Origin: Bdellovibrionales bacterium
GTDB lineage: Bacteria; Bdellovibrionota; Bdellovibrionia; Bdellovibrionales; UBA1609
Assembly: GCA_016716765.1 (NCBI GenBank)
Contig: JADJVA010000006.1
Span: 407,046-471,045, forward strand
Direction of reading: 5' to 3'
DNA: 64,000 bases
The translations under genes and the position numbers were made by a program. Below the pieces are notes generated by a model that searched no databases, was not told where the DNA came from, and worked only from the letters and a program-made list of their open reading frames with translations. Of the stretch, positions 1,871 to 25,205 are shown one piece after another (position 1 is the first letter of the stretch; each line of letters begins with the position of its first letter).

Positions 1871-3285
1871 ATGAAAGAATACTTGCTTGCGGTCTCAATT
1901 TTACCATTTTTTATCGTCAGTAATCAGTCGTTTGCCGATAGTGCAAAAGGCGAAATTGCAACTCTGACAGCTCCGCCATTTGTGCCGCCGCCAATTACAA
2001 GAAAAACCTCTGCTAAATTGATTGTAAACCTTGAAGTGGTCGAAAAGAAAATGAAAATCGCTGATGGAGTAGATTACACGTTTTGGACCTATGGAGGAAC
2101 CGTTCCCGGAAGTTTTATTCGAGTCCGAGAGGGTGATTCTGTCGAATTTCACTTAAAAAATCATCCATCGTCTAAAATGCCACACAATATCGATTTACAT
2201 GCGGTTACTGGCCAAGGTGGAGGCGCAGGAGCGTCCTTTACTCTCCCAGGCCATGAAAGTGTCTTCTCATTTAAGGCAATTAACAAAGGACTCTACGTTT
2301 ATCACTGTGCGACTGCTCCGGTAGGAATGCATATAGCAAATGGTATGTATGGTTTGATTTTAGTAGAGCCAAAAGAGGGTCTGCCTAAGGTTGATCGCGA
2401 GTACTATGTTATGCAAGGCGACTTTTATACCAAAGGTAAATTCGGCAAACAGGGCTACCAACCTTTTGATATGGAAAAAGCAATTGACGAAAGACCGACT
2501 TATGTTGTTTTCAATGGATCAACCAGTTCAATGACCGGAGACAACGCTCTAAAAGCAAGAGTGGGCGAAACTATTCGTTTATTTGTCGGCAATGGCGGGC
2601 CAAATTTGGTTTCATCCTTTCATGTCATTGGAGAAATTTTTGATAAGGTCTATAAAGAAGGGGCATCTGAATTCAATACAAACGTTCAGACAACTTTAGT
2701 GCCTGCCGGTGGCTCAGCCATCGTTGAGTATAAAGTTGAAGTGCCAAGCAATCTCGTGCTTGTAGATCATAGTATATTTCGCACCTTTAATAAGGGTTCC
2801 CTGGGACTTATGAAAGTCGAAGGCGCAGAAAATTTGGAAATATATTCTGGTAAAACAGCAGACAATGTCTATTTGCCTGAAGGCGGTGCCATTCAAAAAG
2901 TGACTGACAAGGAAATTGTCAGTGTGGCGGCAACGCTTGAAGATCAGATTAAGTTTGGAAGAAATATTTACCAGCAGAACTGCGCCGCCTGCCACCAAGC
3001 AGATGGCAAAGGTATTCCTGGAGCATTTCCCCCATTGGCATCCGCAGATTATTTCAATGCGGATTGGAAGCGTGCCATTGATGTCGTTAAAAACGGGAAA
3101 ACTGGCGCGATCACTGTAAATGGAACACCCTATAACGGTGTTATGCCATCGCTAGGGCTAAGTGAAGAGGACATTGCCAACGTGCTGACTTTTGTCTCTC
3201 ACTCTTGGGGAAATAAAAACGTGTGTTTAAGAAATCTGATGTTTCTGCGGTACAGCTAAAAAAAGAAAAAGCTGCGGAGCACTAG
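1871..3285 (+). CDS. nirK: Copper-containing nitrite reductase NirK with C-terminal class I cytochrome c domain (three-domain type); apparent 1-nt frameshift near the 3' end
   Basis: Cu-ligand motifs HNIDLHAV and [20 protein letters not shown]. Heme motif NCAACH with GVMPS. The listed ORF ends at 3259. A 1-nt correction in the A5 run 3215-3219 gives ...[26 protein letters not shown], with its stop at 3283-3285 abutting the next ATG. Confidence 0.9.
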
Positions 3286-4050
3286 ATGAGCTTGCTAATC
3301 AGTAGTTTTTTAATAATTGCTTTTACAACAAGCTCATTAAAAGCTTCTGAATTAGTAACGGTTCCAAAGGGAAAGGTTGAGGCCATATGGCTATCACCAG
3401 TTTCAAAAAAGGCAAAAGTAAAATCGAATAAAGTTATAATTGCGGTCGACGCCTTTAGAACTCAAATCTATCCAGTAACAGTTACGCAATTTAGAGAATT
3501 TCTTGGAATACATCCGGAGTGGTCTAAAAGCAATACCTCCTCGTTATTCAAAGACGACTACTATCTGCGTGATCTTGAAACAGCTCCAGAAAAAGCACCG
3601 GTCACATTTGTTACCTGGTTTGCTGCAAGAGCTTATTGTGAGTCGTATGGACTTCGATTGCCAACAATTAACGAATGGGAATATGCCGCGGCTGCATCGG
3701 AGTCAAATAGGAATGCTAATCGTGAAGAAAAATTTTTGCGACGTATTCTGAATTGGTACGGCGAACCTCAGGGTGAGCGACTCAAAGATGTGGGCAGCAT
3801 CTATAAAAATGTTTACGGCATCTGGGATATGCACGGATTAATTTGGGAATGGGTTGATGATTTCAACTCTAGCTTTGTAACCGGAGAGAGCCGTGAGGAT
3901 AGCTCTTTTAATAAGGATATGTTTTGCGGGGCAGGAGCGCTTTCGTCAGCAGACAAAGAAAACTATGCTGCGTTTATGCGATTCGCATTCAGATCAGGTC
4001 TCAAAGGTAAAAGTGCCGTTTGGAATTTGGGATTTAGATGTGTCCGATAG
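3286..4050 (+). CDS. nirV: Formylglycine-generating-enzyme (SUMF1) family protein, NirV-like
   Basis: Signal peptide. FGE-fold motifs WEWVDDF and LGFRCVR. Sits immediately downstream of nirK, as nirV does in other denitrifiers. Confidence 0.7.
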   Translation: MSLLISSFLIIAFTTSSLKASELVTVPKGKVEAIWLSPVSKKAKVKSNKVIIAVDAFRTQIYPVTVTQFREFLGIHPEWSKSNTSSLFKDDYYLRDLETAPEKAPVTFVTWFAARAYCESYGLRLPTINEWEYAAAASESNRNANREEKFLRRILNWYGEPQGERLKDVGSIYKNVYGIWDMHGLIWEWVDDFNSSFVTGESREDSSFNKDMFCGAGALSSADKENYAAFMRFAFRSGLKGKSAVWNLGFRCVR

Positions 4051-4058
4051 GGGGTTTT

Positions 4059-4643
4059 ATGTATCTATTTAATTTAGTAAAAAAAATTTCAATCTTTTTG
4101 ATGTTTTCGCTTGTCGCACAAAACGCTGTTGCGGAATCGTTATACGATCTTAAAACAAGCTGGCGGGACACAGAAAATAATAGAACGGATGTATCTATCG
4201 CAAAAGGATCTTATACGATCATCGCGATGGTTTACACAGGATGTGCACACGCCTGCCCGCTGACAATTTCAAAAATTATGGAAATTGAAAAAGATTTTTC
4301 AAAGGCCAAGTTTACAGAGCTGAAAATTGTCCTTGCGTAATTTGATGTAAAGAATGATCGGCCTCAAAGACTTAAGAAATACCAAGCCGAAAGAAAGCTA
4401 AACCCCGATCAATGGAAGTTTTTATCTGCCGAGACTGAGGACGATGCTCGCAAGCTCGCCGTCACTTTGGGAATCAGCTATAAGGATATAGGTGATGGTG
4501 ATTTTTCTCACAGTAATTTAATTACTTTATTAGATCCAAGCGGAAAAATATTAGCGTCAATAAATAGTCTAAACGCAAACACTGAGCCGCTAATTAAGGG
4601 CCTACAAGATTCTTTAAATAAGACACCAAAAAGTAAATTATGA
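4059..4643 (+). pseudogene. SCO1/SenC family copper chaperone interrupted by an in-frame TAA (4338-4340)
   Basis: Signal peptide and CxxxC motif (YTGCAHACP). After the TAA the same frame continues FDVKNDRPQRLKKYQ...DFSHSNLITLLDPSGKI, the conserved SCO1 C-terminal half. Its stop overlaps the nnrS start (ATGA). Confidence 0.75.
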
Positions 4644-5764
4644 GCTCGACGAAAAACGAAGACAGAATAGAACCTTATATTTTGCTGTTTCCCACTGGAT
4701 GCCTACTGGGTTTTCTTGGTCTCATTTTCTGGGTCTTCTTTCAGTTTGGCTGGATACAGTTCTATCCTCGCGAACCACACGGTAATTTGATGTTTTTTGG
4801 TTTTTTATGGTCTTTTGTCGCCGGTTTTTTAATGACGGCCATACCAAAAATGACTTCAACGTCTCCCTCGAAATTAGGCGAAACCTCTGTTGCAATCTCT
4901 CTTATTTTTGTTCAGATAATTCTTAATGTCAGAAATCTTACCGATGTCTCCGCCATGGTTTTTCTATTACAAAATATTTTTCTTCTGTTCTTTATCGTGC
5001 GACGATTTCTAGTTAATCGAAAGGTCCCATTTTTTGGTTTTATTTTCTTACCCACTGCATTCATTCAGTCATTTTTAGGTGTCGTATTGTTTTTTATCTA
5101 CAGAGATCGCAGTTTTTTTCTCCTGCTTGCAGGCGAAGCGTTTATTTTGAACTTGATATTGGGCCTTGGCAGTAGACTGATACCAGTCATATCTAGATTA
5201 CCAAACGCATTGCTGCCAAATGAAAGTTCAAGTTCTGAAAGTTTTGTTTGGCCATTGATTACTTTACTATTAGTTAATTTAGGTTACTGGTGTGAAGTTT
5301 TAGGTTTTAGAGAATTAGGAGTCAGTCTTAGAATTCTCGGGATGATCTTCGCGGCCGTAAAATTACTTAAACTGTTCGCAATGCCTGTAACCTGGTCTTA
5401 TGTTGGTGTTGGATTAAAAATATCAGCTGCAATGCTAATTGTGGGACAGGTTTTTAGTTTGTCCTTCTTTAACAGTATACTTGCAGGCCAACACCTTATT
5501 TACATAGGTGGTTTTTCAATAACTACTTTACTTGTGGCAACGAGAGTGATTCTAGCCCATGGTGGTCAAAGTCTAAATTATGAAATTTCCTCAAAACGGT
5601 TGATATCCATCGTAATGCTCATTTTACTGTCAGCGCTCCTGCGGTTTTTTGTACGAAATGATGTCTCAAATTCCTTTATAAGTATCTCAGCACTGATTTT
5701 TATTTTTGGGCTCGCGCTTTGGGCAGTTCTACTTCGAGGGTTTCCCAAGCGGCACTCAATTTAA
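4640..5764 (+). CDS. nnrS: NnrS family membrane protein (NO-response heme/copper protein)
   Basis: 374 aa, about 12 TM helices. N-terminal PREPHGNLMFFGFLWSFVAGFLMTAIPKMT pattern typical of NnrS. Located in the nirK context. Confidence 0.7.
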   Translation: MSSTKNEDRIEPYILLFPTGCLLGFLGLIFWVFFQFGWIQFYPREPHGNLMFFGFLWSFVAGFLMTAIPKMTSTSPSKLGETSVAISLIFVQIILNVRNLTDVSAMVFLLQNIFLLFFIVRRFLVNRKVPFFGFIFLPTAFIQSFLGVVLFFIYRDRSFFLLLAGEAFILNLILGLGSRLIPVISRLPNALLPNESSSSESFVWPLITLLLVNLGYWCEVLGFRELGVSLRILGMIFAAVKLLKLFAMPVTWSYVGVGLKISAAMLIVGQVFSLSFFNSILAGQHLIYIGGFSITTLLVATRVILAHGGQSLNYEISSKRLISIVMLILLSALLRFFVRNDVSNSFISISALIFIFGLALWAVLLRGFPKRHSI

Positions 5765-6745: not shown

Positions 6746-7399
6746 ATGCACAAGATGAAGATTTTAAACCTCAGTTTTATCTCGGAAGCTGCAAAGGTCA
6801 GTTTGATTTTCGCATGCATTCAATTGACAGCTTGTACAACGAGTATGCTGACCGTGCAGACCTCACCCGAAGGGGCCGATGTGTACGTTGTTTATCCGGG
6901 ACAACAGCCCTCTCGTTTGGGCAAGACTCCTTTGAGCATGGACAGTTATCCTCTCTCATCGCAGCCGGGAGATTCGTTAAAATTGATTGTTGAGAAAGAG
7001 GGGTTTCGTGCTGAGCATTACTTAGTTCCAAAGACGGTCTTTGCAGCGAGCATCCGTCTCGATATCGAAATGAGGGAGAGCAAATTGCCGGCAGCATGTA
7101 CGGATCAAGACGCAGCCGTCGAAGAGGTCGCTCGATCCGTGGCTCAGGCCCAGTCTCATATTCAGGCTAAAATGTATGATAACGCACTTCGAATTTTAAA
7201 AAATCTCAATGATAAATTCCCCAACTCTAGCGTTGTTTACGATCTGATGGGGAACACTCACTATCTGATGAAGGACTTGGAGAAAGCCCTTAGTTCGTAT
7301 GAAAAATCACTGAGACTCAGTCCAAACAATAGTGAAACACAAAGAATGGTGGCCAAATTGAAACAGATATATTCCATTCGTTCTCCGGCGGGTAATTAG
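6746..7399 (+). CDS. Lipoprotein with PEGA domain and C-terminal TPR repeats
   Basis: Lipobox IQLTAC. PEGA-like TVQTSPEGADVYV...LGKTPL. TPR-like YDNALRILKNL...YEKSLRLSPNN. The ORF's upstream extension to 6443 overlaps the divergent HAD gene, so the start is set at 6746. Confidence 0.65.
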   Translation: MHKMKILNLSFISEAAKVSLIFACIQLTACTTSMLTVQTSPEGADVYVVYPGQQPSRLGKTPLSMDSYPLSSQPGDSLKLIVEKEGFRAEHYLVPKTVFAASIRLDIEMRESKLPAACTDQDAAVEEVARSVAQAQSHIQAKMYDNALRILKNLNDKFPNSSVVYDLMGNTHYLMKDLEKALSSYEKSLRLSPNNSETQRMVAKLKQIYSIRSPAGN

Positions 7400-7401
7400 C
7401 C

Positions 7402-8199
7402 ATGTTTTACCTCGTCGGACTCATTATAGCGACTTCCAGTGTGGTGGCTGTTGTTGTTCATCTTCAGCAGGCCTACAATAGCTATTGGGACTTTGTGGCC
7501 TTTGCGATGGTGCTAGGCGGAACCATGGCTGTAGCAACAATTATTGCACCCTGGGATATCTACCGCGATTTTGTACGAAACCTGAAGCGACTGTTCGTCT
7601 ACGTGGCACCATCACAGAGAGAGTTTCTGCAACTGTGTCTCGATATTATTTCTAAGCATAAGAATGGTCTAAAGGACTTTAAGGTTGATCCGTCTCGTTT
7701 GGAACAGAGAATTCTTCGCGATGGACTGGAGCTGATCTCACTTGGGTTTAATCCAGACAAAATAGAAATCATTTTAAAGGAAAGAGTCTATCAAGCAAAT
7801 GAGCGAAATTTTAGGGTCAGTGCCATGGTTCGCTCCTTGGCAAAATATCCACCAGCTTTTGGTCTTGCTGGTACAGTTTTCGGTCTGGTGCATCTGATGC
7901 GCGGAGTTTCAGAGGGAATGAATGCAAAAGAGACAGGTATTCGGATGGCGATTGCCCTCGTTGCGACACTTTACGGACTGATGGTAGCCAACTTATTCGT
8001 GAATCCGGCGGGAGAATTGATGAATCGGTTTGCGAAGATGGACGAGGTTCTTGCGGAAATTGCAATTCAGGCCGTTCTTTTGGCAGCAGACGGCACTCCG
8101 GTTCTAGAGGCGCAGGAAATGTTAAATTCCTTTGTTGATACGGATCAGAGAATCGACTTAACCTCGATTGCAGAAATCCCGAACGCAGGCGCCGCGTGA
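7402..8199 (+). CDS. motA: MotA/PomA-type stator proton-channel protein
   Basis: 265 aa, 4 TM helices. PPAFGLAGTVFGLV and ALVATLYGLMVANLFVNP motifs of the MotA/TolQ/ExbB family. Starts 2 nt after the preceding stop. Confidence 0.85.
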   Translation: MFYLVGLIIATSSVVAVVVHLQQAYNSYWDFVAFAMVLGGTMAVATIIAPWDIYRDFVRNLKRLFVYVAPSQREFLQLCLDIISKHKNGLKDFKVDPSRLEQRILRDGLELISLGFNPDKIEIILKERVYQANERNFRVSAMVRSLAKYPPAFGLAGTVFGLVHLMRGVSEGMNAKETGIRMAIALVATLYGLMVANLFVNPAGELMNRFAKMDEVLAEIAIQAVLLAADGTPVLEAQEMLNSFVDTDQRIDLTSIAEIPNAGAA

Positions 8200-8218: not shown

Positions 8219-8947
8219 ATGAGAGCAATCAGTCGAAATTTACATAGAGCTCACGAAGAAATCGATACAGAAGGGACGTGGGCGATCAGTTACGGAGATA
8301 TGGTAACTCTACTCCTGAGCTTCTTTGTTCTCTATTTTACGGTGGATCAAAAAGCCGATCAAGCACAGCACCTTCAAGATTCCCTTATGGCGAGTTTAAA
8401 AAGCCTTTCTGAAGAGGACAAACCCATCGATAAGAGTTCATATAAGTTGCATATTGGAGAGGAAAAATCGACAGAAATTGACCAAAAAATAATTGATCGA
8501 TTGGGCGCCAAAGTTCACCAAGTGGGACAGAAGATTGTCATCGAATTTCCCGGTGTTTCTTTCTTTGATATTGGAAAAATTGATTTGCGTTCAGATGGAG
8601 TTAGGATGCTGAGTGAGTTTGTAACGGCCTATCTCCCCTTTGCGGGAAAATACAGTTTGGGCGTTCACTCCTTTACAGATACTCGACAGGTATTGAGAAC
8701 AAAAAATCGGCGATTCAATGATAACCTTGAACTTTCAGCCTTGCGGTCGGTCGCCGCGATGAGGGTCTTGCAATCGAGGGGAATTCCCCTTCATGCAATG
8801 AGGATCAGCGGATTGGGTGAATTGGAGGTCACGTCGGAACAACTCAAGGCGTCTGGGGTCAATCTCTTGAGTGGAGATCCCAGAGACCTCGCTCGAAAGG
8901 TTGTATTGGTTGTTGAGCCTGCTGTCGAACGTGGAGGTAAGGGGTGA
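8219..8947 (+). CDS. motB: MotB-type stator protein with OmpA-like peptidoglycan-binding domain
   Basis: AAGGAG RBS before the ATG at 8219. N-terminal TM WAISYGDMVTLLLSFFVLYF with the conserved Asp. OmpA-like C-terminus (NDNLELSALRSVAAMRVL). Confidence 0.85.
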   Translation: MRAISRNLHRAHEEIDTEGTWAISYGDMVTLLLSFFVLYFTVDQKADQAQHLQDSLMASLKSLSEEDKPIDKSSYKLHIGEEKSTEIDQKIIDRLGAKVHQVGQKIVIEFPGVSFFDIGKIDLRSDGVRMLSEFVTAYLPFAGKYSLGVHSFTDTRQVLRTKNRRFNDNLELSALRSVAAMRVLQSRGIPLHAMRISGLGELEVTSEQLKASGVNLLSGDPRDLARKVVLVVEPAVERGGKG

Positions 8948-10710
8948 AAAAATCGTTTCTTATGTCACTTCTCTTGTTATCTCTTTTTCCTCTTACTGTG
9001 ATGATTCCGTCGGGCGTTTGGGCTCAGAACGACACTCGTCACCCGCGGGTGGCCGAGCTGGAAGACCAGTATAAAAGACAAGCCATGGATTTTCTGAAAT
9101 CTCGATTTCCTCATCTGCCGTTTTCAGTTGTTGTCAGCATTGATCCTCTGAGACGAGTTTCGGCTGACAATTATCAGGCGAAACAGGAGGCTTTACCCTA
9201 TTATTTACTACAAGATGAAGAAATTCGGGATGAGTGGGATGATCCCAATGCAACGCTGTATGTGCTGAGCAGGCGAATAAAATCTGTTCAAGTTTCTGTT
9301 TCAGTGCCTTCAACGGTTGCGGATGAGGAGCTTTCCGAAATCAAGGAGACTCTCATTTCTTCATTGAGGCTTGTTCCAGCCAGAGATAAGATTGAAATTT
9401 TGAAGCGTTCCTGGTCAGGCCTACCCAATTTTTCAGTTTATGCGGGGATTGGTTTGGCGGCCATTCTTATTTTTCTCCTTGGGCTTTATGCAATTACCCG
9501 CATGTCCTTGCGTCGGATGACTCGTGCGTTTAGTGAGTTGCAGACATCTTTGGGGTCAAAAAACAATCAAGCCTCTGTCAGTCCTCCGCCCGTGGTGTCG
9601 ATGGTCGAAGATAATAAGAACAATGGACAGAGTGGGGGTGATTTTCGATTTACGGATCCGATTAAGATCAGAGAGGTCATCGCAGGGCGAGTTCATGAGC
9701 TACTCTATTCGGATGAGTTTCCTCGTCTAGAGGACATTGTAAGCTTGGATCGGTTTGCACAAAATGATTCTCGTTCAACCGGAGCCCTGATCTCTGAATT
9801 TCCTCTCGATATGCAGCGTCGGCTATTTTCGCTTGGAAGGGGAGAATACTGGATGGAGTCCTTTATCGAGCCAGGAGAGTTGGTTCCCCAGTGTTTGGAA
9901 ATACTTGAGCGTCTCTGTCGAGTTCATAAATCAAAAAGAGGGAAGGAATGGGAGGCCTTGCTGATACAAGTTTGGCGAATGGACGAGTTAACAAGAGTGA
10001 GGTTTTTGCGGACAATTGATCAAGATGAATCAATGGCCATAGTTCATTCGATGCCAAAAAATGTTTCGGTGCCAACGGCACGTCAGGCCTTTCCGGGAAG
10101 TTGGGGTGCTGTCTTAGATCCTCAATTTCGTCCCGCTAAGATCACGGCAGAGCGAATCATGCAAATCGGCGAAAAGGCGATGGAGATTTTGCCTCCGGTG
10201 CCGTTTGAGATACTTGAAACATACAGGCAGGAAAAGGATCTCATCGCTTATCTCAATGTCTCTGATGTGGCTGCAGAGAGAGACATTTATCGAGCCTCCC
10301 CAGAAACGGCGATGATTCATCGAATAAGACCTCCCTTTTATCGTGTTGTGCAAGATGATAAGGCCTATATGGAGCAATTCGTTAACATGATTAGTTTAGA
10401 CGACTGGGCTTTGTCTCTGTTTAACGTGAGTCGAACTGAACGGGCAAATATAGATCGGCACTTTTCAAATAAGCAAAAATTCATATTTATTGAGAAATTG
10501 AAAGCACTTGATTCAAGAAACCCTGAGCTTCGCCAGATAGGATTGATCAGGGAGAGGATTGCCAGAAGTTATGCGGATTATAAAAAGGGAATAGAGCTCA
10601 ACCAAAAGGTTGGAGACATCGCGAGAAATCAGGAAATTGAGCCAGACTCTCAGGCTGAATCTGAAGCCAAGCAGAATGACAGTGGGGATACGGAAGAGAA
10701 TGTCGCCTAA
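8944..10710 (+). CDS. Membrane-anchored protein: signal peptide, periplasmic domain, one TM helix, cytoplasmic FliG/MgtE-N-like helical domain
   Basis: GTG start overlaps the motB stop (GTGA). Signal peptide; TM FSVYAGIGLAAILIFLLGLYAI. C-terminal DDWALSLFNVSRTERANIDRHFSNKQKFIFIEKLKAL resembles the FliG_C pattern. The family call is by eye only. Confidence 0.6.
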   Translation: MKKSFLMSLLLLSLFPLTVMIPSGVWAQNDTRHPRVAELEDQYKRQAMDFLKSRFPHLPFSVVVSIDPLRRVSADNYQAKQEALPYYLLQDEEIRDEWDDPNATLYVLSRRIKSVQVSVSVPSTVADEELSEIKETLISSLRLVPARDKIEILKRSWSGLPNFSVYAGIGLAAILIFLLGLYAITRMSLRRMTRAFSELQTSLGSKNNQASVSPPPVVSMVEDNKNNGQSGGDFRFTDPIKIREVIAGRVHELLYSDEFPRLEDIVSLDRFAQNDSRSTGALISEFPLDMQRRLFSLGRGEYWMESFIEPGELVPQCLEILERLCRVHKSKRGKEWEALLIQVWRMDELTRVRFLRTIDQDESMAIVHSMPKNVSVPTARQAFPGSWGAVLDPQFRPAKITAERIMQIGEKAMEILPPVPFEILETYRQEKDLIAYLNVSDVAAERDIYRASPETAMIHRIRPPFYRVVQDDKAYMEQFVNMISLDDWALSLFNVSRTERANIDRHFSNKQKFIFIEKLKALDSRNPELRQIGLIRERIARSYADYKKGIELNQKVGDIARNQEIEPDSQAESEAKQNDSGDTEENVA

Positions 10711-11280
10711 AATTGGAAAATTCAGAAAATCAATTTGGATTTCCGTTTGCCTCGTAGCCGCGATGGCTTTCTCGACTCAGAAAGCTCGGGCGACAAAGAT
10801 AGACGTGATGACAGGGTATTACAGCATAACGGCCGAAACGGCCACAGCCAGCAGCGAAATTTCAAATTTTGGACTCTATCGAATTAACTATATGATCTCG
10901 CTGCTCCCAAAAATGGAATTGATTGTTGGCTACAGTTTAATGATGAGCGACATTTTGGGGGCGACTTGGGCTTCGGGATCGACGGCTCTTTTGTTTATTA
11001 TCCGATCAGCACGAGTTGGAGGATACAGGCCGCCGTCGACAACGCCAAAATGAGTATTGACGGATTATGGAGACCCTATATGGGAATGGGCTTTTCCCAG
11101 AGACAGTTTCAATCAGTGCAGAGCACCTACGCCGGCTTTTCGTTTAACTTGGGAGTTGAGAGATCATTAGCTAGAGCCTTCGATTTAAAGGGAGAAGTTC
11201 GCTATCTTTTTTTGCAAGGCACTCGCGATTCTACTGCGACCGAATTGTCTGCAGTCGCTGGTGTCGTATTCTCCTTTTGA
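10700..11280 (+). pseudogene. Small outer-membrane beta-barrel protein, frameshifted in a G-run (10957-10961)
   Basis: Signal peptide VAAMAFSTQKARA. Alternating beta-strand pattern with a C-terminal ...AGVVFSF. Two overlapping ORFs (10610..11053 and 10966..11280) join if one G is added. The start overlaps the upstream gene by 11 nt. Confidence 0.65.
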
Positions 11281-11568: not shown

Positions 11569-13071
11569 ATGGCGAATTTCAAATGGAAGAAAGATGTTCA
11601 TGCGGCACTCATTGTGTTGAGGTCGGATTTTGTATGTTTGGATCTGAGTTCATCTTTCAGGTCATTTTTAGTTTGGTTCACTCTTGCCTTGTTGACTATT
11701 TCTCTTTCGAGTTGCAAGAAAAACAATAAGGCTTTCGATTTTCTTGAAGAGGAGCCGTCTATCTCGGCTGGCGAGGTTGATATTGTTGGATACACTCCTG
11801 AAGATGATCCGGTTGTGGTCGCAGAAGGAAAGTCAACCACATTTGCGGTTTCTCTTGGGCCCACGGCCGGAAATGAAGTTACCTACGTCTGGAAGCTAGA
11901 TGATGTTGAGGTGGCCACTGGCTCAAATCCATTCTATGTTTTGAATGGATCCTCACTCACTTCGGGTTCCCATTCGCTTGTTGTCGAGGCGCGGAATACC
12001 AAATACGGAGCTTCCAAGACCTTCAATGTCCGCAAGAATGCTGCTCCAACTTTAACATTGACGACTCCCGGTGCCACTGGAAATTCTGTCAACGTGAACG
12101 GATCGATCAGTTTTTCTATTCAGGCCGCTGATTCAGATGGAGATTCCCTCTCTTATACTTGGAAACTCAACGGAGTCGAAGCGCCGAGTGTCTTTGCGGT
12201 CACAAGTTCGACCACAACCTCGACAGCCATTTTTTCTCCAACTCTGACTCAAGTTGGTTCAGGTACTATTAAAGTTGAAGTCTACGATGGACATGATACC
12301 ACCTCTTATTCTTGGGGAATCGACGTCGTAAACCCCATCACTGCAGTTATCAACAGCTACAGTCCGACGACCGCGCTCGTTATTGTGACTTCAACTGGGA
12401 GTGTTGACTTTAGCATCAGTGCAACAGCAAAAACTCCAACAATTTATAGTTGGAAACTTGATGGTGTGGCGGTAGGAACGGCGACGAATCTCTACACCTT
12501 AACAGGAGCCGGATTAACTGTTGGGACTCACACATTGATCGCGAAGGTCGAGGATTCAGACAGCTCAGATACCCATACCTTTTCGATCAAGCGCAATGCT
12601 GCCCCTGTTCTTTCTAATCCTTTGGCAACGCCCAGCTCCCAGGTTATTAATTATGGCTCTCAAATGACCATCACTATCGATGGCACAGATGCCAATTCAG
12701 ATGCTCTCAATTACACTTGGACTTTAAACGGTAATCCCAGTGCCACACTTTCAGCAAGTAATACGGCAACAGGGAGTCAGGTGATTTTTCAGCCAAATGT
12801 TTCGCTAACAGGAGATCATACGATTTCGGTCTCAGTGACTGACAGCACCGAGGTCGCAAACTATTCCTGGAATGTGAGTGCCAATCGTTTTACGGATGCC
12901 TGCAATCAGTTGACGTCTGGAAAAATTTGCACCTTGGTGGGAGTTCCTTCGGGTGGTTCCGGCTTAAATTCGGTCGATGACCAAACCAAGCAAAAAATCT
13001 ATTTTCGAGATGTGATCGATGATGGGTCTGGAAATTGGGTGTATGCGGATAGTCATAATAATGCCATTTAG
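11569..13071 (+). CDS. Surface protein, N-terminal part: lipoprotein-like signal and four Ig-like (PKD/Big-type) repeats
   Basis: Repeat signatures TYVWKLDD, SYTWKLNG, IYSWKLDG and NYTWTLNG at a period of about 90-100 aa. Ends at the TAG at 13069-13071, which is in frame with the next ORF. Confidence 0.75.
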   Translation: MANFKWKKDVHAALIVLRSDFVCLDLSSSFRSFLVWFTLALLTISLSSCKKNNKAFDFLEEEPSISAGEVDIVGYTPEDDPVVVAEGKSTTFAVSLGPTAGNEVTYVWKLDDVEVATGSNPFYVLNGSSLTSGSHSLVVEARNTKYGASKTFNVRKNAAPTLTLTTPGATGNSVNVNGSISFSIQAADSDGDSLSYTWKLNGVEAPSVFAVTSSTTTSTAIFSPTLTQVGSGTIKVEVYDGHDTTSYSWGIDVVNPITAVINSYSPTTALVIVTSTGSVDFSISATAKTPTIYSWKLDGVAVGTATNLYTLTGAGLTVGTHTLIAKVEDSDSSDTHTFSIKRNAAPVLSNPLATPSSQVINYGSQMTITIDGTDANSDALNYTWTLNGNPSATLSASNTATGSQVIFQPNVSLTGDHTISVSVTDSTEVANYSWNVSANRFTDACNQLTSGKICTLVGVPSGGSGLNSVDDQTKQKIYFRDVIDDGSGNWVYADSHNNAI

Positions 13072-13104
13072 TTTTATAACCGTTCAGGATCGAATATTGT
13101 TCGC

Positions 13105-15255
13105 TTGGAAAAGACAATTCCGACTGGTACAACAGTCATGATTATGAACAACGGTGCTATTGGTCGAACGGATGACTTCAGTACGTACAACAACTTTAAA
13201 TTGTACAATCCCAGCGGCATTGCCTATGATGCGGCAAATGATCGCCTTTTTATTGCTGATATCAGCAGCAACCGCGTCGTCAAAGTAGATTCATCAGGAG
13301 TGGGATCGACTCTCCTTGGAACCTTGGGAACCGGTCAGGGAGGCGTAACAAACAGTCAAGATACGGCCGGGACGACGCACGTCTGCGGGAGTCCTCGTGA
13401 TTTGGTGTACATCAATCCGGATGTCTATGTGACTTGTTCTCAATCTAATTCGATTAAGATGGTGAATGCGAATACCGGGCTAGCTCGGGTTGTGGTCGGC
13501 ACAGTGACATCCGGGTCAACAGCTGCTGGCAATGGAGAAGGAACAGCGGGGAGCGGGGCTGGAACAGCTCAAGTCAATGCTCCGCAAGGAATAGAAAAGG
13601 ACTCTTTGGGCAATCTCTATTGGACCGAGGTTGGATCGGGCAATGATTGTCGATTGAGAGTCTGGAATCGAACTGCTGGTACAATAAACTTTTTTAACTC
13701 AACGGTCTCGGTGCTTTCTGGAGAGACGGCGACTTTGGCGGGATCGTCCACCAATTGCACCTATGTGGGCGGAGCTCGTGCAGCCATTCGATTGGGCCAG
13801 GTTTACGGATTAGGAGTTCATGAATCCGGTGGAGTGGTTCAGGGGTTCTTCTTGCCGAGCTATAACTATCATCGCGTGATGTATATTAATAATTTAAATT
13901 CGAGCCAGGTTCATGGTGGAACGACAGTCAATGCCCTTGAGGGTGCTACCGTGATCGGAGATGGAACGGCTTCCTACAATGGAGATGGCGCTCTTGGAAA
14001 CCTCATTCGCGTTTACTACCCCTTTAATATGTCGATGACTGCGACGGGCAATGATGTCCTCCTCGCGGACTACTCCAATCTGCGAGTGCGGCGAATGACC
14101 TTGGCCTCAGGCTTGGTGTCGACCGATGTGGGTGCTGGTCGGTTGCGCTATGGGCTTGTGGGTGGCTCCGATGAAAGTGCAAGCGAAACGGTCCTCAATT
14201 TGCCTTATGATATGTCAATCGATGCCGGCAATAATAAGCTTTATTTTACCGACAGCGGAAACTACCGCATTCGTCAGGTCGATTTGATTACGGGCTTGGT
14301 GTCGACAATTATTGGAGAAGGGAATGCTGGCGATGGGAATATTCAAAACGAGGATCCGACAAATGTGAGGATGCGTGATCCGCGTGGAGTGATTCCATTT
14401 GGTGATCACTTGTTGTATTCAGATGCCACATCTGGGAATTGCGTTGTGCGTGCGTATAATCGAGCTGCCACCGCACAAAGTATTTTTGGCGTGACAATAA
14501 ATCCATTAAAGGTATCAACTATTGCCGGAAACACAATTGCGGGGTGTGCGACATTTCAAGGAGGCGGAGGGGCAGCCACCAATGCGCGGCTTCGCAATCC
14601 TGAAGGCATTGTTTCAGATGGGACAAATCTTTTTATCGCGGACAGTGCCGATGATTGTATTTTAAAAGTTTCCTCAGCTGGAATTATCAGTTCTTATCTG
14701 GGCACTTGCAATTCCGGAGGCTATGGTGAGGGTCCATTGGCAGGTATCACTTTAAACGACCCCACCTCCATCGTTTTTGATCCGAGCTATCCGGGTACGG
14801 GTAACTTCTTTTTTGTCGATCAGACCAATGTAGGAACGGCGAGAATCCGATATGCAAACTACACGGGTGCTCAAGTCACGATTGCAGGAGTTGCTGTCAA
14901 CGCCAATAGCGCAAATACCATTTTTGCCGAGACGGGGACTCCTCGACTTTATGGAATTGCGGCCTTTTCGAGTCAGCTGTGTTATTCATCTGGTCATACA
15001 AATGGTCTGAATGGCAATCACAATGTCATTTGTCGAGATCGAAACTCTGGCCTTGCACCGGTCACACTCAGGGCTGGGTCCAACCTAGGCGATGTCAAAG
15101 GCTCTGGTGGTCCCCTGCACTATGAGCATGAAGGCGTTGATGCTTTCCAGGCTCTCTTGAATAGACCAGGAGGATTGGCTTTTGATGCATCGGGAAACCT
15201 CTATATTATTGAGCGAAATAATTCCTTGATTCGCAAAGTAAAACGTTGGTTTTGA
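13105..15255 (+). CDS. Surface protein, C-terminal part: NHL-repeat beta-propeller region (same frame as 11569..13071)
   Basis: Repeated NHL-like units (NPSGIAYDAANDRLFIADISSNRVVKV, LYFTDSGNYRIRQVD, NLFIADSADDCILKV, NLYIIERNNSLIRKV). The frame is open from 13072. Confidence 0.75.
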   Translation: MEKTIPTGTTVMIMNNGAIGRTDDFSTYNNFKLYNPSGIAYDAANDRLFIADISSNRVVKVDSSGVGSTLLGTLGTGQGGVTNSQDTAGTTHVCGSPRDLVYINPDVYVTCSQSNSIKMVNANTGLARVVVGTVTSGSTAAGNGEGTAGSGAGTAQVNAPQGIEKDSLGNLYWTEVGSGNDCRLRVWNRTAGTINFFNSTVSVLSGETATLAGSSTNCTYVGGARAAIRLGQVYGLGVHESGGVVQGFFLPSYNYHRVMYINNLNSSQVHGGTTVNALEGATVIGDGTASYNGDGALGNLIRVYYPFNMSMTATGNDVLLADYSNLRVRRMTLASGLVSTDVGAGRLRYGLVGGSDESASETVLNLPYDMSIDAGNNKLYFTDSGNYRIRQVDLITGLVSTIIGEGNAGDGNIQNEDPTNVRMRDPRGVIPFGDHLLYSDATSGNCVVRAYNRAATAQSIFGVTINPLKVSTIAGNTIAGCATFQGGGGAATNARLRNPEGIVSDGTNLFIADSADDCILKVSSAGIISSYLGTCNSGGYGEGPLAGITLNDPTSIVFDPSYPGTGNFFFVDQTNVGTARIRYANYTGAQVTIAGVAVNANSANTIFAETGTPRLYGIAAFSSQLCYSSGHTNGLNGNHNVICRDRNSGLAPVTLRAGSNLGDVKGSGGPLHYEHEGVDAFQALLNRPGGLAFDASGNLYIIERNNSLIRKVKRWF

Positions 15256-18419: not shown

Positions 18420-18666
18420 TTCTCAATAAAAGCGTATCATAACGAGCGAGCCAGAAATTCAAATTCTCGTTTCGAGTCAAAATATAATATAAAAAGGGAA
18501 AGAATGAGATATGTCAGGCAAACTGACACTGACTAAAAACTGTCACATGTGGAGGCATTAGACAAGTGTCCAGTCGGCATACGCCATGCAATAGGTTAGA
18601 ATGGAACTGATTGGAGTTAATCAGTTAAGGGGGAGCGGCGTGGCGATCACAAATTGGTCCATTGGG

Positions 18667-20787
18667 ATGAAAAATAGATTTAAGAGTCAGTTGCTCAAAT
18701 ATCGTACACTTCGGCTACAGAAATATACGTTGATGGTCTCATTAACTTTGTTGATCGTTCTATTTCAGAACTGTGATCCAGCTGGAGTTCCTATCGGAAG
18801 TGCGCCACATGGTGATGGATTTGTCGATAGTGCGAGCGGAAATGGCAATGGAAGCGGCAACAATCCACCCGGAGGAAATAGCACGCCGCCACCCGGAGGC
18901 GGCACACCACCACCTGGCGGCGGCACACCACCACCAGTTGTGACGGGCAACCCTCCCCCGCCTAATCCAACTGGGATTGCTTTAGCAGCAAATACAGTTA
19001 ATAGCATTTCTTTGACTTGGACTGCGGGAGGAGGAAGCACGGTCGCCTATCGGGTGGCTTATCAGGAAGGAACAACAGCTCCGGCAAATTGTGGGAGCGG
19101 GACGGTGCTCTCAGTTAATTCCACAGTTGGCTTGGCTGCCAATTTGACAAGAGCTAAGCAATACTCTTTTCGAGTTTGTGCCGTAAATGGCAATACGACT
19201 CCAGATATGTCTTCCGGAATCACCTATACGACCGGTACGAGGTGTTTTCAGAATCCAGCTCCCACAATTGTGCAGGACACTTTTGCGAGTTTTTCTTTTC
19301 CGATGGGAATGGGTCCGCTCTCAGGCACGGCTACGAATATTCCGCAAGTCGCTGTGACGGGAACAAATGCTGGAGGACCCTACGATCTAAATCAGACTTA
19401 TTCGCTTCGATGCACAACTTCTGTCAATAATATTATCGACGTTGATTGTGCAGATAATAACGGAACCAATTTTAATAATAATGCGGCAAACATCCGATTT
19501 CAGCAGCCAGCGAATAGTCAATGTCAACCGACAGGTCCCGTCACAGTGACAATGGTCGCTCGAGATGAGTGTGGTGCTGAGTCCCCTGCAAAAACAATTG
19601 TCGTAAACGTGACAAACGAGTGTCTTCCAGAGGCAAAAGTTGTAGCTGTAGAAAAGGCACAGAATGATCAGTTTGGAAGTCAGGTGGCCATTGACGGTGA
19701 CTACGCAGTTGTCGTTGAAACGGGTGACAGTGAAGGCGGTGACGGGGCTGGAGCTGCGAATGTCTTTTTTTACAATGGCACCAGTTGGATTTTTCAGCAA
19801 AAATTGATTCCTACAGAAGCCGCAGTGAGCGATAACATGAAGAGCGTTGCCATTAGCGGAAGTAGAATCGTTTTGGGGAGTCCCTATCACCCCACCGCTG
19901 GAGTTGGAGCCGTCTTTGTTTTTGATCGCTCTGGCTCTACTTGGACACAAACCGCCAAGATCACTCCATCTCAACCTAACGTGCAAGATGTGGGTGACCT
20001 TTTTGGATACTCCGTGGCTCTTTCGGGCAATCAGTTGGTGGTCGGGGCACCTTGGGATAACAACGTTGAAACAGCAGGATCAAAATTGGCCTACGCGGGT
20101 GCCGTTTATGTCTACAACTTGTCAGGTGGCGCATGGGTTCAAGATGGAAGCAAAGTTGTCGTTAGTGGAAATACCGGACGCAATGAATTTGGAGCAAGTG
20201 TTGCAATAGGCACGAATTACATTGTGGTCGGCGCACCTCACAATGAGACGTTCAAGGGAAATGGCAATGGCAAGGCGTACGTGTTGAAAAAGCCTGCCAC
20301 GAACTGGACAGTTTCTCAGACCTTAGAGTCTTCAAATAAAAAAGCCGGAGATATGTTTGGAATTTCGGTGAAGACTGATGGGACGCGGATCGCTGTTGGG
20401 GCCATCTTTGCCACAGGGCGGGCTGGTCAAACCTCGTCGGGAGCCGCTTACATCTTCGAAAATACGGGTAGCTGGGTTCAAACTGCATCAATTGGCGCAA
20501 GTGATGTGGCAAATGGAGATCGTTTTGGAGTTTCAATTGCTCTAGCTGGAGATGATTTACTTATTGGCTCTCACTGGGATGATTCAAAAACTGGCGCTGT
20601 TTATCACTATCGACGCAGTGGCGCTAGCTGGACTCAGAGTTTTAAAATTATGTCGCGTGACAGAGCTCTCAACGATGAGTTTGGAAGTTCGGTTGCTATG
20701 TCTAACCGTCGAGCTATTTGCGGCAGTCGTTTGGATGATGGAGCGGCCGAAAATATTGGAGCGGCCTACATTGTCAATCTCAAATGA
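18667..20787 (+). CDS. Lipoprotein with Pro/Gly-rich linker, fibronectin-III-like domain and FG-GAP beta-propeller repeats
   Basis: Lipobox LFQNC. Repeated FG-GAP-like units (FGSQVAIDGDYAVV, FGYSVALSGNQLVVGAP, FGASVAIGTNYIVVGAP, FGVSIALAGDDLLIGS). The ORF opens at 18601, but the Met at 18667 precedes the signal peptide. Confidence 0.75.
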   Translation: MKNRFKSQLLKYRTLRLQKYTLMVSLTLLIVLFQNCDPAGVPIGSAPHGDGFVDSASGNGNGSGNNPPGGNSTPPPGGGTPPPGGGTPPPVVTGNPPPPNPTGIALAANTVNSISLTWTAGGGSTVAYRVAYQEGTTAPANCGSGTVLSVNSTVGLAANLTRAKQYSFRVCAVNGNTTPDMSSGITYTTGTRCFQNPAPTIVQDTFASFSFPMGMGPLSGTATNIPQVAVTGTNAGGPYDLNQTYSLRCTTSVNNIIDVDCADNNGTNFNNNAANIRFQQPANSQCQPTGPVTVTMVARDECGAESPAKTIVVNVTNECLPEAKVVAVEKAQNDQFGSQVAIDGDYAVVVETGDSEGGDGAGAANVFFYNGTSWIFQQKLIPTEAAVSDNMKSVAISGSRIVLGSPYHPTAGVGAVFVFDRSGSTWTQTAKITPSQPNVQDVGDLFGYSVALSGNQLVVGAPWDNNVETAGSKLAYAGAVYVYNLSGGAWVQDGSKVVVSGNTGRNEFGASVAIGTNYIVVGAPHNETFKGNGNGKAYVLKKPATNWTVSQTLESSNKKAGDMFGISVKTDGTRIAVGAIFATGRAGQTSSGAAYIFENTGSWVQTASIGASDVANGDRFGVSIALAGDDLLIGSHWDDSKTGAVYHYRRSGASWTQSFKIMSRDRALNDEFGSSVAMSNRRAICGSRLDDGAAENIGAAYIVNLK
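18883..18936 (+). repeat. In-frame 21-bp tandem repeat encoding TPPPGGG (about 2.6 copies)
   Basis: acgccgccacccggaggcggc / acaccaccacctggcggcggc / acaccaccacca. Confidence 0.85.
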
Positions 20788-20859
20788 CTGTGCTGGCGGG
20801 TTGAGGTCTGAAGAATGTTTCGAATGCTGAGATTTTTTGGGAACAAGAGGGGTAAGAGA

Positions 20860-22959: not shown

Positions 22960-23000
22960 TTGAATATTAAATATTAAACGAATGAACAGGGGAGAATAGA

Positions 23001-23693
23001 ATGTCTGTTAAAATAAAAGGAAAAATCAGAATTTTCTCGGTGGTGATTGGGCTCTTTATGACAATGGTGTTTGTCGGTCACGGTTGCAGTGATCTCTTGG
23101 GACGAAGTTCAAACAAGGACACAGCGTCAAGTGGACCCGCTAGTGATGAAAATCAGGATTTCGATGTGATTCCTGGTGAAAGAACGGTATCGACCGTTTA
23201 TGCGAAGCAAATATTGGACAATATGACTTCCTGCTCAGGAATAGGAACACCTAGCGTTTCGACTGTTCAGGAATGGACTCAGCGGTTGGGCACCATTTCA
23301 GAATATGGCTACGCGACTTCGATTTCAGGACCAATGATGATGGGGATCGTGGCAATTGCTGGGGAAATTTGTAATGACTTAGTTTCTTTAGAAACACCAA
23401 AGCCAGATGTTCAACGAATTATCTTTGACGGAATTGATTTTACTCGGGGACCTTCTTCGGTATCAAGTGGGGCGATTCGTTTGGTGGTCAACCGACTGGC
23501 CCGAAGTTGTTGGCAACGTGACAACATTACGAGTCTCGGACCTCAGGGGGAGCCCAGCGAGACAGATGTAATCGATACTGCTTATCGAGATATTGTTCAG
23601 GCCGGAACAGGTGATACACCAGCACAAACAAGAGCTGGTATGTTGGCTGTATGCACGGGGATGTTATCTAGTTTAAGCGCAGTTGAATTTTAA
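23001..23693 (+). CDS. Lipoprotein, DUF1595/DUF1592-like fragment-type protein
   Basis: Lipobox VGHGC. The C-terminal pattern RLVVNRLARSCWQRD...MLAVCTGMLSSLSAVEF resembles the PSD family. Assignment is weak. Confidence 0.4.
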   Translation: MSVKIKGKIRIFSVVIGLFMTMVFVGHGCSDLLGRSSNKDTASSGPASDENQDFDVIPGERTVSTVYAKQILDNMTSCSGIGTPSVSTVQEWTQRLGTISEYGYATSISGPMMMGIVAIAGEICNDLVSLETPKPDVQRIIFDGIDFTRGPSSVSSGAIRLVVNRLARSCWQRDNITSLGPQGEPSETDVIDTAYRDIVQAGTGDTPAQTRAGMLAVCTGMLSSLSAVEF

Positions 23694-23722
23694 AATTGAA
23701 AAAATGAAAGTTGAGGATTTTT

Positions 23723-25201: not shown

Positions 25202-25205
25202 GTTT

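Follow-up and report, generated by a model that had tools for sequence, protein, structure and literature searches.

In the flagellar motor RBM3 domains build the S-ring, the C-terminal domain of FliG (FliG_C) is pushed by the rotating MotA pentamer, and MotB anchors to the peptidoglycan, its plug opening on engagement. To our knowledge, torque generation between FliG and MotA is known only inside flagella. Here we describe a gene in a stretch of 64,000 nucleotides (nt) from Bdellovibrionales bacterium (NCBI GenBank assembly GCA_016716765.1, contig JADJVA010000006.1, positions 407,046 to 471,045 of the forward strand; hereafter the window), the product of which joins a part resembling the C-terminal half of FliF to a part resembling FliG in one polypeptide. 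The gene follows directly on genes for a MotA/MotB-type stator. On balance we think it probable that this locus encodes a self-contained, flagellum-derived, working rotor–stator module.

The nearest known natural precedent is the FliF–FliG fusion of the Chlamydiaceae, a protein of ~330 amino acids (aa) with an RBM2-like and one further ring-building motif (RBM), two transmembrane helices and only the middle domain of FliG (FliG_M) (PMC4768692); it has been discussed in connection with the injectisome (SctQ) (Bergeron 2016, PeerJ, PMC4768692). Going by the description in that paper, both proteins are natural single chains with a shortened periplasmic region that occur outside a complete flagellar system, whereas the Bdellovibrionota fusion has RBM3 as its only ring-building motif, carries a full FliG-like region with the torque domain FliG_C and comes with a dedicated stator. 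In addition, FliF–FliG fusions that were engineered or arose spontaneously in Salmonella and Vibrio are described as compatible with assembly of the membrane ring (PMC6079021, PMC10941966, PMC11481574). Those are fusions of full-length FliF and FliG within a normal flagellum, whereas the protein described here is natural, truncated, highly diverged and encoded in a separate operon.

Motors of the MotA/MotB family that are coupled to envelope partners outside the flagellum are represented by TolQR, ExbBD, AglRQS, GldLM and ZorAB, and the present operon is like them in this respect; partners of Tol-Pal include TPR and beta-propeller proteins, those of GldLM are surface adhesins. We know of no FliG-like torque acceptor in any of these non-flagellar 5:2 motors (Tol, Exb, Agl, Gld, Zor), and chlamydiae are, as far as we know, without MotAB. 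A recent survey takes three traits as flagellum-specific, namely the plug, an expanded OmpA-type domain and an enlarged cytoplasmic domain of MotA; as a rule, B subunits of non-flagellar 5:2 motors have neither the plug of MotB nor such an OmpA-type domain (PMC12505986). By the same marks, its plug and OmpA-like domain, the stator of the Bdellovibrionota operon is in contrast flagellar in kind.

When set against the flagellar rotor core itself (FliF and FliG with MotA5B2), the locus shares an RBM3-like domain, a transmembrane helix, a C-terminal helix and a FliG N-M-C-like order, further a match to the FliG_C profile and a charged torque helix, and on the stator side the plug, the OmpA-like domain, the essential Asp and the prolines. 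It differs in that the two rotor parts form one polypeptide of ~11% identity to its counterparts, in the absence of RBM1/RBM2, EHPQ and MFXF, in a 43-residue loop with a DEWDDP motif instead of a beta-collar of ~110 residues, and in that no FliM/N, export gate, rod or hook genes are found nearby. Full-text literature searches returned no description of this fusion family.

FliF-like and FliG-like parts of the fusion protein

The gene and the segments of its product are located in the window as follows.

8944..10710, + strand: FliF(RBM3-TM2-C helix)–FliG fusion gene, 588 aa, GTG start
8944..9024, + strand: signal peptide, residues 1–27, likely signal peptidase I site VWA/QN (...GVWA/QN), from sequence
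9040..9423, + strand: FliF-RBM3-like ring-building domain, residues 33–160, alpha-beta-(insertion)-beta-alpha-beta
9148..9276, + strand: 43-residue insertion, residues 69–111, at the position of the FliF beta-collar, with the motif LP...DEWDDP
9430..9498, + strand: transmembrane helix, residues 163–185 (FSVYAGIGLAAILIFLLGLYAI, residues 163–184), aligned to transmembrane helix 2 (TM2) of FliF
9649..9708, + strand: helix DPIKIREVIAGRVHELL, residues 236–255, collinear with the C-terminal FliG-binding helix of FliF
9745..10593, + strand: FliG-like cytoplasmic region, residues 268–550, part of FliG_N plus FliG_M and FliG_C
10462..10512, + strand: predicted torque helix, residues 507–523, FSNKQKFIFIEKLKALD, with a conserved charged ridge
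10594..10707, + strand: disordered acidic tail with a conserved dipeptide, -[AV]A, at the C-terminus

The initial annotation, which had been made from the letters of the window, described the product as a single-chain combination of a FliF-like periplasmic and a FliG-like cytoplasmic region. The 588-aa open reading frame (ORF) is real and all peptides quoted for it were found, including RFLRTIDQDESMAIVHSMPKNVSVPTARQ (residues 352–380) and DDWALSLFNVSRTERANIDRHFSNKQKF... (from residue 486). The GTG start and the stop codon of the motB-like gene before it share 4 nt. In comparison to a relative with 92% identity the ratio of nonsynonymous to synonymous substitution rates (dN/dS) is 0.083, which marks the ORF as a functional gene under strong purifying selection rather than one that arose by chance, and the periplasmic domain is near-frozen, the proportion of nonsynonymous differences (pN) being 0.003 versus 0.35 for synonymous differences (pS).

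About 60 close homologues share the length of the protein (550–600 aa). Every one carries the annotation hypothetical, and with few exceptions they stem from metagenome-assembled genomes of Bdellovibrionales, Bdellovibrionaceae or Bacteriovorax type. When 1.84 billion cluster representatives were searched exhaustively with the family profile, only 241 proteins scored at E ≤ 1e-3, 220 of them at E ≤ 1e-10. The matches listed have the same fusion architecture or are fragments of it throughout, and no ordinary FliG is among them. As far as its sequences tell, the family is small, sharply bounded and uniform in architecture. A link to the three studied motAB pairs of B. bacteriovorus HD100 was looked for, but protein searches of a collection of 5.8 billion proteins returned no homologue named for this strain, and the family is probably absent from it; the stator phenotypes published for HD100 (PMC11323537) are therefore not transferable to the family. 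The family alignment shows no variation at P85, D96, E97, W98 and D99 and at least 90% conservation at D100 and P101, and the pair R147-D148 at the start of the last periplasmic strand is again invariant. Invariant positions of the cytoplasmic part are W303, P371, P384/W387, E445, Y449 and R462/F465; near-invariant ones are W488, N494, R500, K510 and R536.

We modeled the fusion protein as a monomer with AlphaFold2, using an alignment of 43 sequences (mean predicted local distance difference test score, pLDDT, 84). The signal peptide and the single transmembrane helix that had been predicted earlier were both recovered, the former at residues 1–27 and the latter, in sequence and model alike, from residue 163. 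Between them the model places helix 34–54, strand 61–68, the 43-residue insertion, strand 112–122, helix 127–140 and strand 149–155, and this predicted alpha-beta-beta-alpha-beta order is the topology of a ring-building motif. Cleavage sites of the type A-x-A/Q recur across the family alignment, and the transmembrane helix is directly followed by the positive flank RMSLRRMTR. A periplasmic N-terminus and a cytoplasmic C-terminus, as proposed in the initial annotation, fit both these charges and the signal-peptidase-like sites. Further downstream a disordered linker (residues 206–238) leads into an all-helical region of ~20 predicted helices (residues 239–577).

Set against the lone E. coli sequence of FliG or FliF, the family profile gave matches in the right register that fell short of significance (E 0.23 and 0.095, respectively). 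We therefore built multi-species reference alignments of FliG (12 species) and FliF (8 species) from E. coli and from megaplasmid or chromid records. Using hhalign, family residues 28–205 gave one collinear alignment to E. coli FliF 234–474 (P = 8.4e-5), thereby taking in RBM3a, the collar position, RBM3b and TM2. When the full-length family was used (query 104–250 versus FliF columns 355–529, E. coli 373 to ~548; P = 7.5e-5) the alignment path runs from RBM3b through TM2 and the linker to the C-terminal FliG-binding helix. Along this path DPRVVALVIRQW of E. coli FliF stands opposite DPIKIREVIAGRV of the fusion protein; taken by itself, the match of the FliG-binding helix is not significant (P 0.27). 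Swapped controls were negative, both for the periplasmic part against FliG (P = 0.14) and for the cytoplasmic part against FliF (P = 0.27).

The periplasmic domain was also modeled in isolation (residues 30–162, alignment of 33 sequences, pLDDT 86.4, predicted template-modeling score 0.77) and compared with the PDB using Foldseek. The top 15 matches are exclusively RBM3/S-ring chains of the FliF MS-ring from Salmonella and Vibrio, with E-values of 4.6e-4 to 2.6e-3, probabilities of 0.99–1.0 and query-normalised template-modeling scores (TM-scores) of 0.44–0.53; OsmC/Ohr folds rank after them. The initial annotation had compared the periplasmic motif with FliF, EscJ and SpoIIIAG. Of this, the likeness to FliF is borne out by both Foldseek and hhalign and concerns RBM3, whereas no chain of EscJ, PrgK or SpoIIIAG is among the 50 Foldseek matches listed. 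In these models the motif is specifically FliF-RBM3-like. The periplasmic part comprises ~130 residues and one domain; RBM1 and RBM2 are missing, and YscJ_FliF is absent from the families listed for 43 members. Likewise the long FliF beta-collar (~110 residues) is not present, the 43-residue insertion with its DEWDDP motif taking its place. The insertion is predicted to be mostly coil, with low to moderate confidence in the monomer models, and is a candidate output or partner-binding surface or a candidate mini-collar.

For the cytoplasmic part the Pfam profile FliG_C (PF01706), named in the initial annotation as the family to look for, matches 21 of the 43 family members when each is scanned singly. 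The best match (6.1e-8) scores 33.3 bits versus a gathering score of 23.3 bits, and all matches fall in the same C-terminal region at profile positions ~9–100 of 108. MgtE_N matches three members weakly. When the family profile was searched against PDB sequences, the sole match was the C-terminal domain of FliG (1qc7, E 0.1). Alignment of the cytoplasmic region (residues 236–560) to the FliG reference by hhalign reached a probability of 96.2% (P = 2.7e-9) over 264 columns, corresponding to FliG 46–323 of 338, which comprises the end of FliG_N and the whole of FliG_M and FliG_C. The FliG_M- and FliG_C-like repeats claimed at first were thus both matched, with a larger extent than had been assumed, since the end of FliG_N is aligned as well. 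Within this alignment RFLRTIDQDE...ARQ (RFLRTIDQDESMAIVHSMPK...ARQ), which had been compared to FliG-middle/MgtE-N, lies on the helices of FliG_M after the EHPQ position, and DDWALSLFNV...FIEKLKALD (DDWALSLFNV...FSNKQKFIFIEKLKALD) lies on ...LLIALKGA...MSQRAADILRDDL, the C-terminal pattern of FliG that had been recognised by eye.

Structure comparison led to the same two proteins. For the full AlphaFold2 model FliG and FliF are essentially the sole Foldseek matches in the top 30; the FliG structures, both full-length and MC-domain ones (8wiw, 3ajc, 3usw, 3hjl, 1lkv and 4fhr among them), have E-values of 6e-3 to 0.2 and probabilities mostly of ~1.0. Full-length FliG chains align over ~320 columns with TM-scores of 0.28–0.41, values that are low because domain orientations differ in multi-domain proteins. 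The charges on the predicted torque helix, which had been proposed as a further check, are conserved: K/R510, at the position of E. coli FliG R281, in 99% and E517, at the position of D288, in 68% of the family. Further charges on this helix are E/D509 (79%), K/R512 (82%), K/R520 (85%) and D/E523 (88%); the position of E. coli FliG D289 is variable.

Two signatures of FliG are not kept. Opposite EHPQ, the FliM-binding part of the EHPQR motif, the family has a VWRL segment or a gap, and an invariant RPPFY is aligned to the MFXF hinge. The fusion protein is neither FliG nor FliF proper, since EHPQ, MFXF, RBM1/2, the long collar, two separate polypeptides and a flagellar gene context are all missing. 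We are nevertheless highly confident that the two parts are homologous to FliF and FliG, respectively. That both likenesses are convergent or coincidental, and that the protein is an unrelated helical-repeat membrane protein, is hardly credible: identity to FliG and FliF amounts to only 10–15%, the single sequence matches no database family, and OsmC-like folds follow FliF in the domain search; but the Pfam hidden Markov model (HMM), the profile–profile alignments with their controls and the structure search agree on a collinear order of FliF then FliG, and the gene always adjoins a flagellar-type stator. Furthermore, most of the flagellar operons we fetched have fliF and fliG side by side in this order. 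A read-through fusion combined with an N-terminal deletion would yield just this arrangement of the C-terminal half of FliF followed by FliG.

The conserved operon and its relation to flagella

The genes adjoining the fusion gene are the following.

6746..7399, + strand: lipoprotein with PEGA and TPR domains, opening the operon, 217 aa, start at ATG 6746, lipobox LTAC, Thr at +2
7402..8199, + strand: A subunit of a MotA-type stator, 265 aa, resembling the short flagellar kind (PomA/MotP), ending in -AA
8219..8947, + strand: B subunit of a MotB-type stator, carrying a plug, the essential Asp (in SYGDM) and an OmpA-like peptidoglycan-binding domain
10700..11280, + strand: small outer-membrane beta-barrel-like protein, last gene of the operon, ~190 aa, broken by a 1-nt deletion near 10953
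11569..15255, + strand: giant lipoprotein with PKD/Ig and NHL repeats, lipobox LSSC, in-frame TAG at 13069–13071

A scan of a genome collection with one peptide pattern yielded 50 loci, a number that is a lower bound, and the gene order was read from iterative HMM searches (jackhmmer) of the ORFs in all of them. According to the record titles nearly all loci belong to Bdellovibrionota (Bdellovibrionales, Pseudobdellovibrionaceae, Bacteriovoracaceae, Oligoflexales or Oligoflexia), together with a few metagenome bins carrying other or generic labels. The single cultured complete genome among them is labelled Bdellovibrio bacteriovorus strain Bd5 (NZ_CP168968.1). In every locus long enough (~45) the order is PEGA-TPR–MotA–MotB–fusion–small barrel, with the five genes on one strand and often with 4-nt overlaps. 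The predicted operon joins the fusion gene to the MotA/MotB stator, the PEGA-TPR lipoprotein and the small barrel, and within it there are no genes for an export apparatus, rod, hook, filament or switch.

The statement of the initial annotation that the protein is encoded next to its own stator holds, the two stator genes lying directly upstream. MotA matches MotA_ExbB (PF01618) at 9.1e-19 and the full-length NCBIfam models of flagellar MotA/PomA/MotP at 1.6e-26 to 1e-15, versus 1.6e-3 for TolQ and 1.5e-2 for ExbB among the non-flagellar models. Across the family the residues corresponding to E. coli Pro173 and Pro222 are retained, and conserved charges are found at D107, E110, D/E119, K120, E127 and R128. 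For MotB the start at ATG 8219 follows the gene call of a related locus (L068), the start in the ORF list being TTG 8168. The protein matches MotB_plug (PF13677) at 1.6e-9, with 37.6 bits versus a cut-off of 24, and OmpA weakly; its homologue in strain Bd5 matches OmpA at 7.8e-8. The Asp aligned to E. coli D32 and the peptidoglycan-binding motif TD...NLELSALR are conserved to at least 80%. NCBIfam scores of the stator proteins are far under the equivalog cut-offs, and by sequence comparison they appear as a divergent flagellar-type stator and not as orthologues of a named one. A Zorya-like defence system was also considered and rejected, as no ZorA, ZorC or ZorD signal was found; PADLOC gave no signature of Zorya or other defence systems beyond generic MotB/ZorB similarity.

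The first gene of the operon encodes a protein with Pfam matches to TPR_2 (8.9e-8), to TPR_1 and, weakly, to PEGA, a pattern repeated in its homologues. Because its LTAC lipobox is followed by Thr at +2, the lipoprotein is predicted to be anchored in the outer membrane, and it may serve as a stator or envelope scaffold. The small barrel gene stands directly downstream of the fusion gene in ~45 loci and encodes ~185 aa that begin with a signal peptide, contain an NQRQFQS motif and end in Phe; OMP_b-brl (PF13505) weakly matches three of four homologues at 2–6e-4 and is listed for the L068 product. The giant lipoprotein matches Ig_3, PKD, Big_9, NHL and TEN_NHL, and roughly 38 of 55 loci have a homologue of 1000–2700 aa beside the operon, which may lie on either side and on either strand. 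In strain Bd5 (L021 4015–12234) a PKD/NHL gene of 1328 residues ends 8 nt before the TPR gene, resulting in a tight six-gene operon.

Two of these genes are broken in the window. Compared with the 90%-identical gene of L068, the small barrel gene has lost 1 nt and is split into ORFs 10610–11053 and 10966–11280, either through an assembly indel or through recent inactivation. The PKD/NHL gene is split into 11569–13071 and 13105–15255 by the in-frame TAG, where L068 has TGG (Trp). L068 carries its own 1-nt deletion elsewhere in the PKD/NHL gene, and among its gene calls both the TPR gene and motA are split. One could read the deletion near 10953 and the change of TGG to TAG at 13069–13071 as signs that the family is real and that the copy in the window lies in a decaying, non-functional cluster. 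We regard this as very improbable, given that neither the fusion gene nor motA, motB or the TPR gene is broken, that the fusion gene has the low dN/dS given above, and that the relative with 92% identity is broken at other single bases, as is typical for indel errors from long reads. Both breaks more likely stem from faulty assembly or from recent lesions.

The operon is not found in a flagellar setting. Canonical fliF and fliG are absent from the window and from the 50 loci, and no flagellar genes were found among the window ORFs scanned, the neighbourhood of the other loci having been examined only partly; a FliM/FliN gene is missing from the operon. Of 47 loci, 9 have a sigma-28-like -10 element (CCGATAA/T) ahead of the TPR gene and thus of the operon (among them L001, L027, L029, L031, L033, L047, L051 and L054); the window and the rest are without it, and a sigma-54 motif was found in none of the 47.

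These data bear on the idea that the fusion protein is an accessory or alternative rotor of an ordinary flagellum, e.g. an extra ring or a second type of rotor that recruits one of several MotAB sets. TPR proteins and pairs of outer-membrane barrels or lipoproteins act as scaffolds of flagellar stators in other lineages (MotX/Y, FlgO/P, PflA/B), which would suit such a role, as would the sigma-28-like element of the nine loci. Bdellovibrio-like organisms moreover carry one to four motAB pairs in separate small clusters (PMC11323537). However, the sigma-28 motif is absent in most loci, and the operon is never beside flagellar genes in the loci examined. The rotor logic of the protein is complete in itself, with ring domain, transmembrane helix and FliG-like part, whereas RBM1/2 and a FliM-binding motif for integration into the C-ring are missing. 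In addition no homologue named for HD100, a well-studied flagellated strain, was returned. We consider a flagellar accessory quite improbable.

The fusion protein and MotA end alike. In the fusion protein the C-terminus is -AA in 37 and -VA in 6 of 51 loci, and in MotA it is -AA in 33 of 51, versus 1% for the other ORFs of the loci; the rest of both sets is mostly -VA, -AS or -SA. These ends look like an ssrA-type ClpX recognition tail or a common docking motif, which would suggest a co-regulated turnover of rotor and stator. In the window the -Ala-Ala-COOH ends are encoded at 8191–8196 (MotA) and 10702–10707 (fusion protein), and in both proteins the dipeptide is preceded by a polar or acidic disordered tail.

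A possible rotor–stator machine of the cell envelope

A rotor–stator module of this composition would most likely be non-switching and ion-driven, with its output in the periplasm or at the outer membrane. From the homologies described above we infer ring formation, rotation, torque acceptance, directionality and output. The periplasmic RBM3 domains would oligomerise into a ring in the inner membrane, as their homology and, by analogy, the rings of engineered FliF–FliG fusions suggest, and the FliG-like domains would be ringed beneath the membrane. MotA5B2 units would be anchored to the peptidoglycan via the OmpA-like domain of MotB, possibly positioned by the TPR lipoprotein. With ion flow MotA5B2 would push the charged helix (K510/E517/K520/D523) and the ring would turn. 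Since EHPQ and MFXF are replaced (VWRL and RPPFY) and no FliM/FliN is encoded in the operon, the motor would be unidirectional and unswitched. Its work would be delivered in the periplasm, where the DEWDDP loop at the beta-collar position is the only strongly conserved exposed element. Candidate output partners are the outer-membrane barrel, the PEGA-TPR lipoprotein and, most plausibly, the giant PKD/NHL lipoprotein, and a role in surface movement, adhesion or prey contact could be imagined, analogous to GldLM driving SprB.

In its full form we put this proposal forward tentatively, as a possibility worth pursuing: an autonomous, non-flagellar rotary machine in which a ring of FliF-RBM3/FliG chains, driven by its own MotAB, acts on outer-membrane partners and the PKD/NHL lipoprotein and serves predatory Bdellovibrionota as a hitherto unrecognised device for motility, adhesion or prey contact. 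That the module moves or energises the PKD/NHL surface protein is, as a claim of its own, rather doubtful.

Several observations weigh against such a machine. The FliG signal is visible only at the family level, because the window protein alone is below detection in Pfam and NCBIfam, and single-sequence searches with it gave no match in either. Foldseek E-values are modest (5e-4 to 1e-2) with TM-scores of at best ~0.5, and the hhalign probability of the FliF profile match is ~60%. The AlphaFold models of the fusion protein are monomers, and a ring is a step beyond them. In MotA the region aligned to E. coli R90/E98 (residues 84–98) is variable and partly gapped in the family, so that the interface between rotor and stator is not assertable residue by residue. 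Neither an axle nor an obvious output element is encoded in the operon, and the link to the PKD/NHL lipoprotein is one of gene neighbourhood. Finally, the negatives for flagellar genes concern the window and the fetched loci only.

Some of these points would suit a non-rotary transducer or stator dock, in which a membrane-tethered FliG mimic recruits and un-plugs the dedicated MotAB units and their power stroke yields a conformational (TolA/TonB-like) or lateral (rack-and-pinion) output to the outer-membrane partners, with no closed rotating ring. Along with the missing axle and the canonical MotA R90/E98 charges that are not conserved, the periplasmic part is a single small domain, and the gene set loosely resembles Tol-Pal in its motor A and B subunits, inner-membrane transducer, TPR protein, NHL beta-propeller and outer-membrane partner. 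On the other hand the periplasmic domain specifically matches RBM3, the motif of FliF that forms rings, and is extremely constrained, Tol and Exb motors engage their transducers via transmembrane helices and not via FliG_C, and the plug and OmpA-type features of the stator are reported to be typical of torque-generating flagellar stators (PMC12505986). We judge a non-rotary transducer to be unlikely.

If the operon does encode a non-flagellar rotary machine, the FliG–MotA torque interface would not be exclusive to flagella, and a rotor–stator core could exist, and perhaps once arose, without the type III export apparatus. A stator with flagellum-type traits travels here with its own FliG-like partner in an operon of five or six genes. 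Should this pair rotate, the rotor–stator core is a separable module, which bears on the question of rotor-first versus secretion-system-first evolution of the flagellum. It would also offer a very small single-polypeptide rotor for torque studies, free of C-ring and export machinery. Specialists would hardly expect to meet, outside the flagellar system, a natural rotor made of one chain that has a stator to itself, and such a pair would serve as a minimal model of torque generation and of the modular origin of the flagellar motor. For predatory bacteria the operon points to an envelope machine of a kind so far unknown, which may drive surface proteins, and the cultured Bd5 host makes genetics and cryo-electron tomography feasible.

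Other genes of the window

Upstream of the operon the window contains a cluster (1871–5764) seemingly tied to nitrogen-oxide metabolism. It comprises a 462-aa protein with a C-terminal CxxCH haem motif (1871–3259), a 254-aa protein (3286–4050) and an NnrS-family membrane protein (4640–5764; PF05940, 1.2e-24). Downstream of the PKD/NHL gene, a 728-aa protein (18601–20787) has a Pro/Gly/Thr-rich low-complexity linker (PPPGGGTPPPGGGTPPP) followed by repeats and is a putative further surface protein near the operon. Four consecutive ORFs on the + strand (20815–26792; 714, 230, 496 and 528 aa) are essentially without Pfam match; the first of them, of 714 aa, shows a weak Laminin_G_3 match and a CAACH motif.

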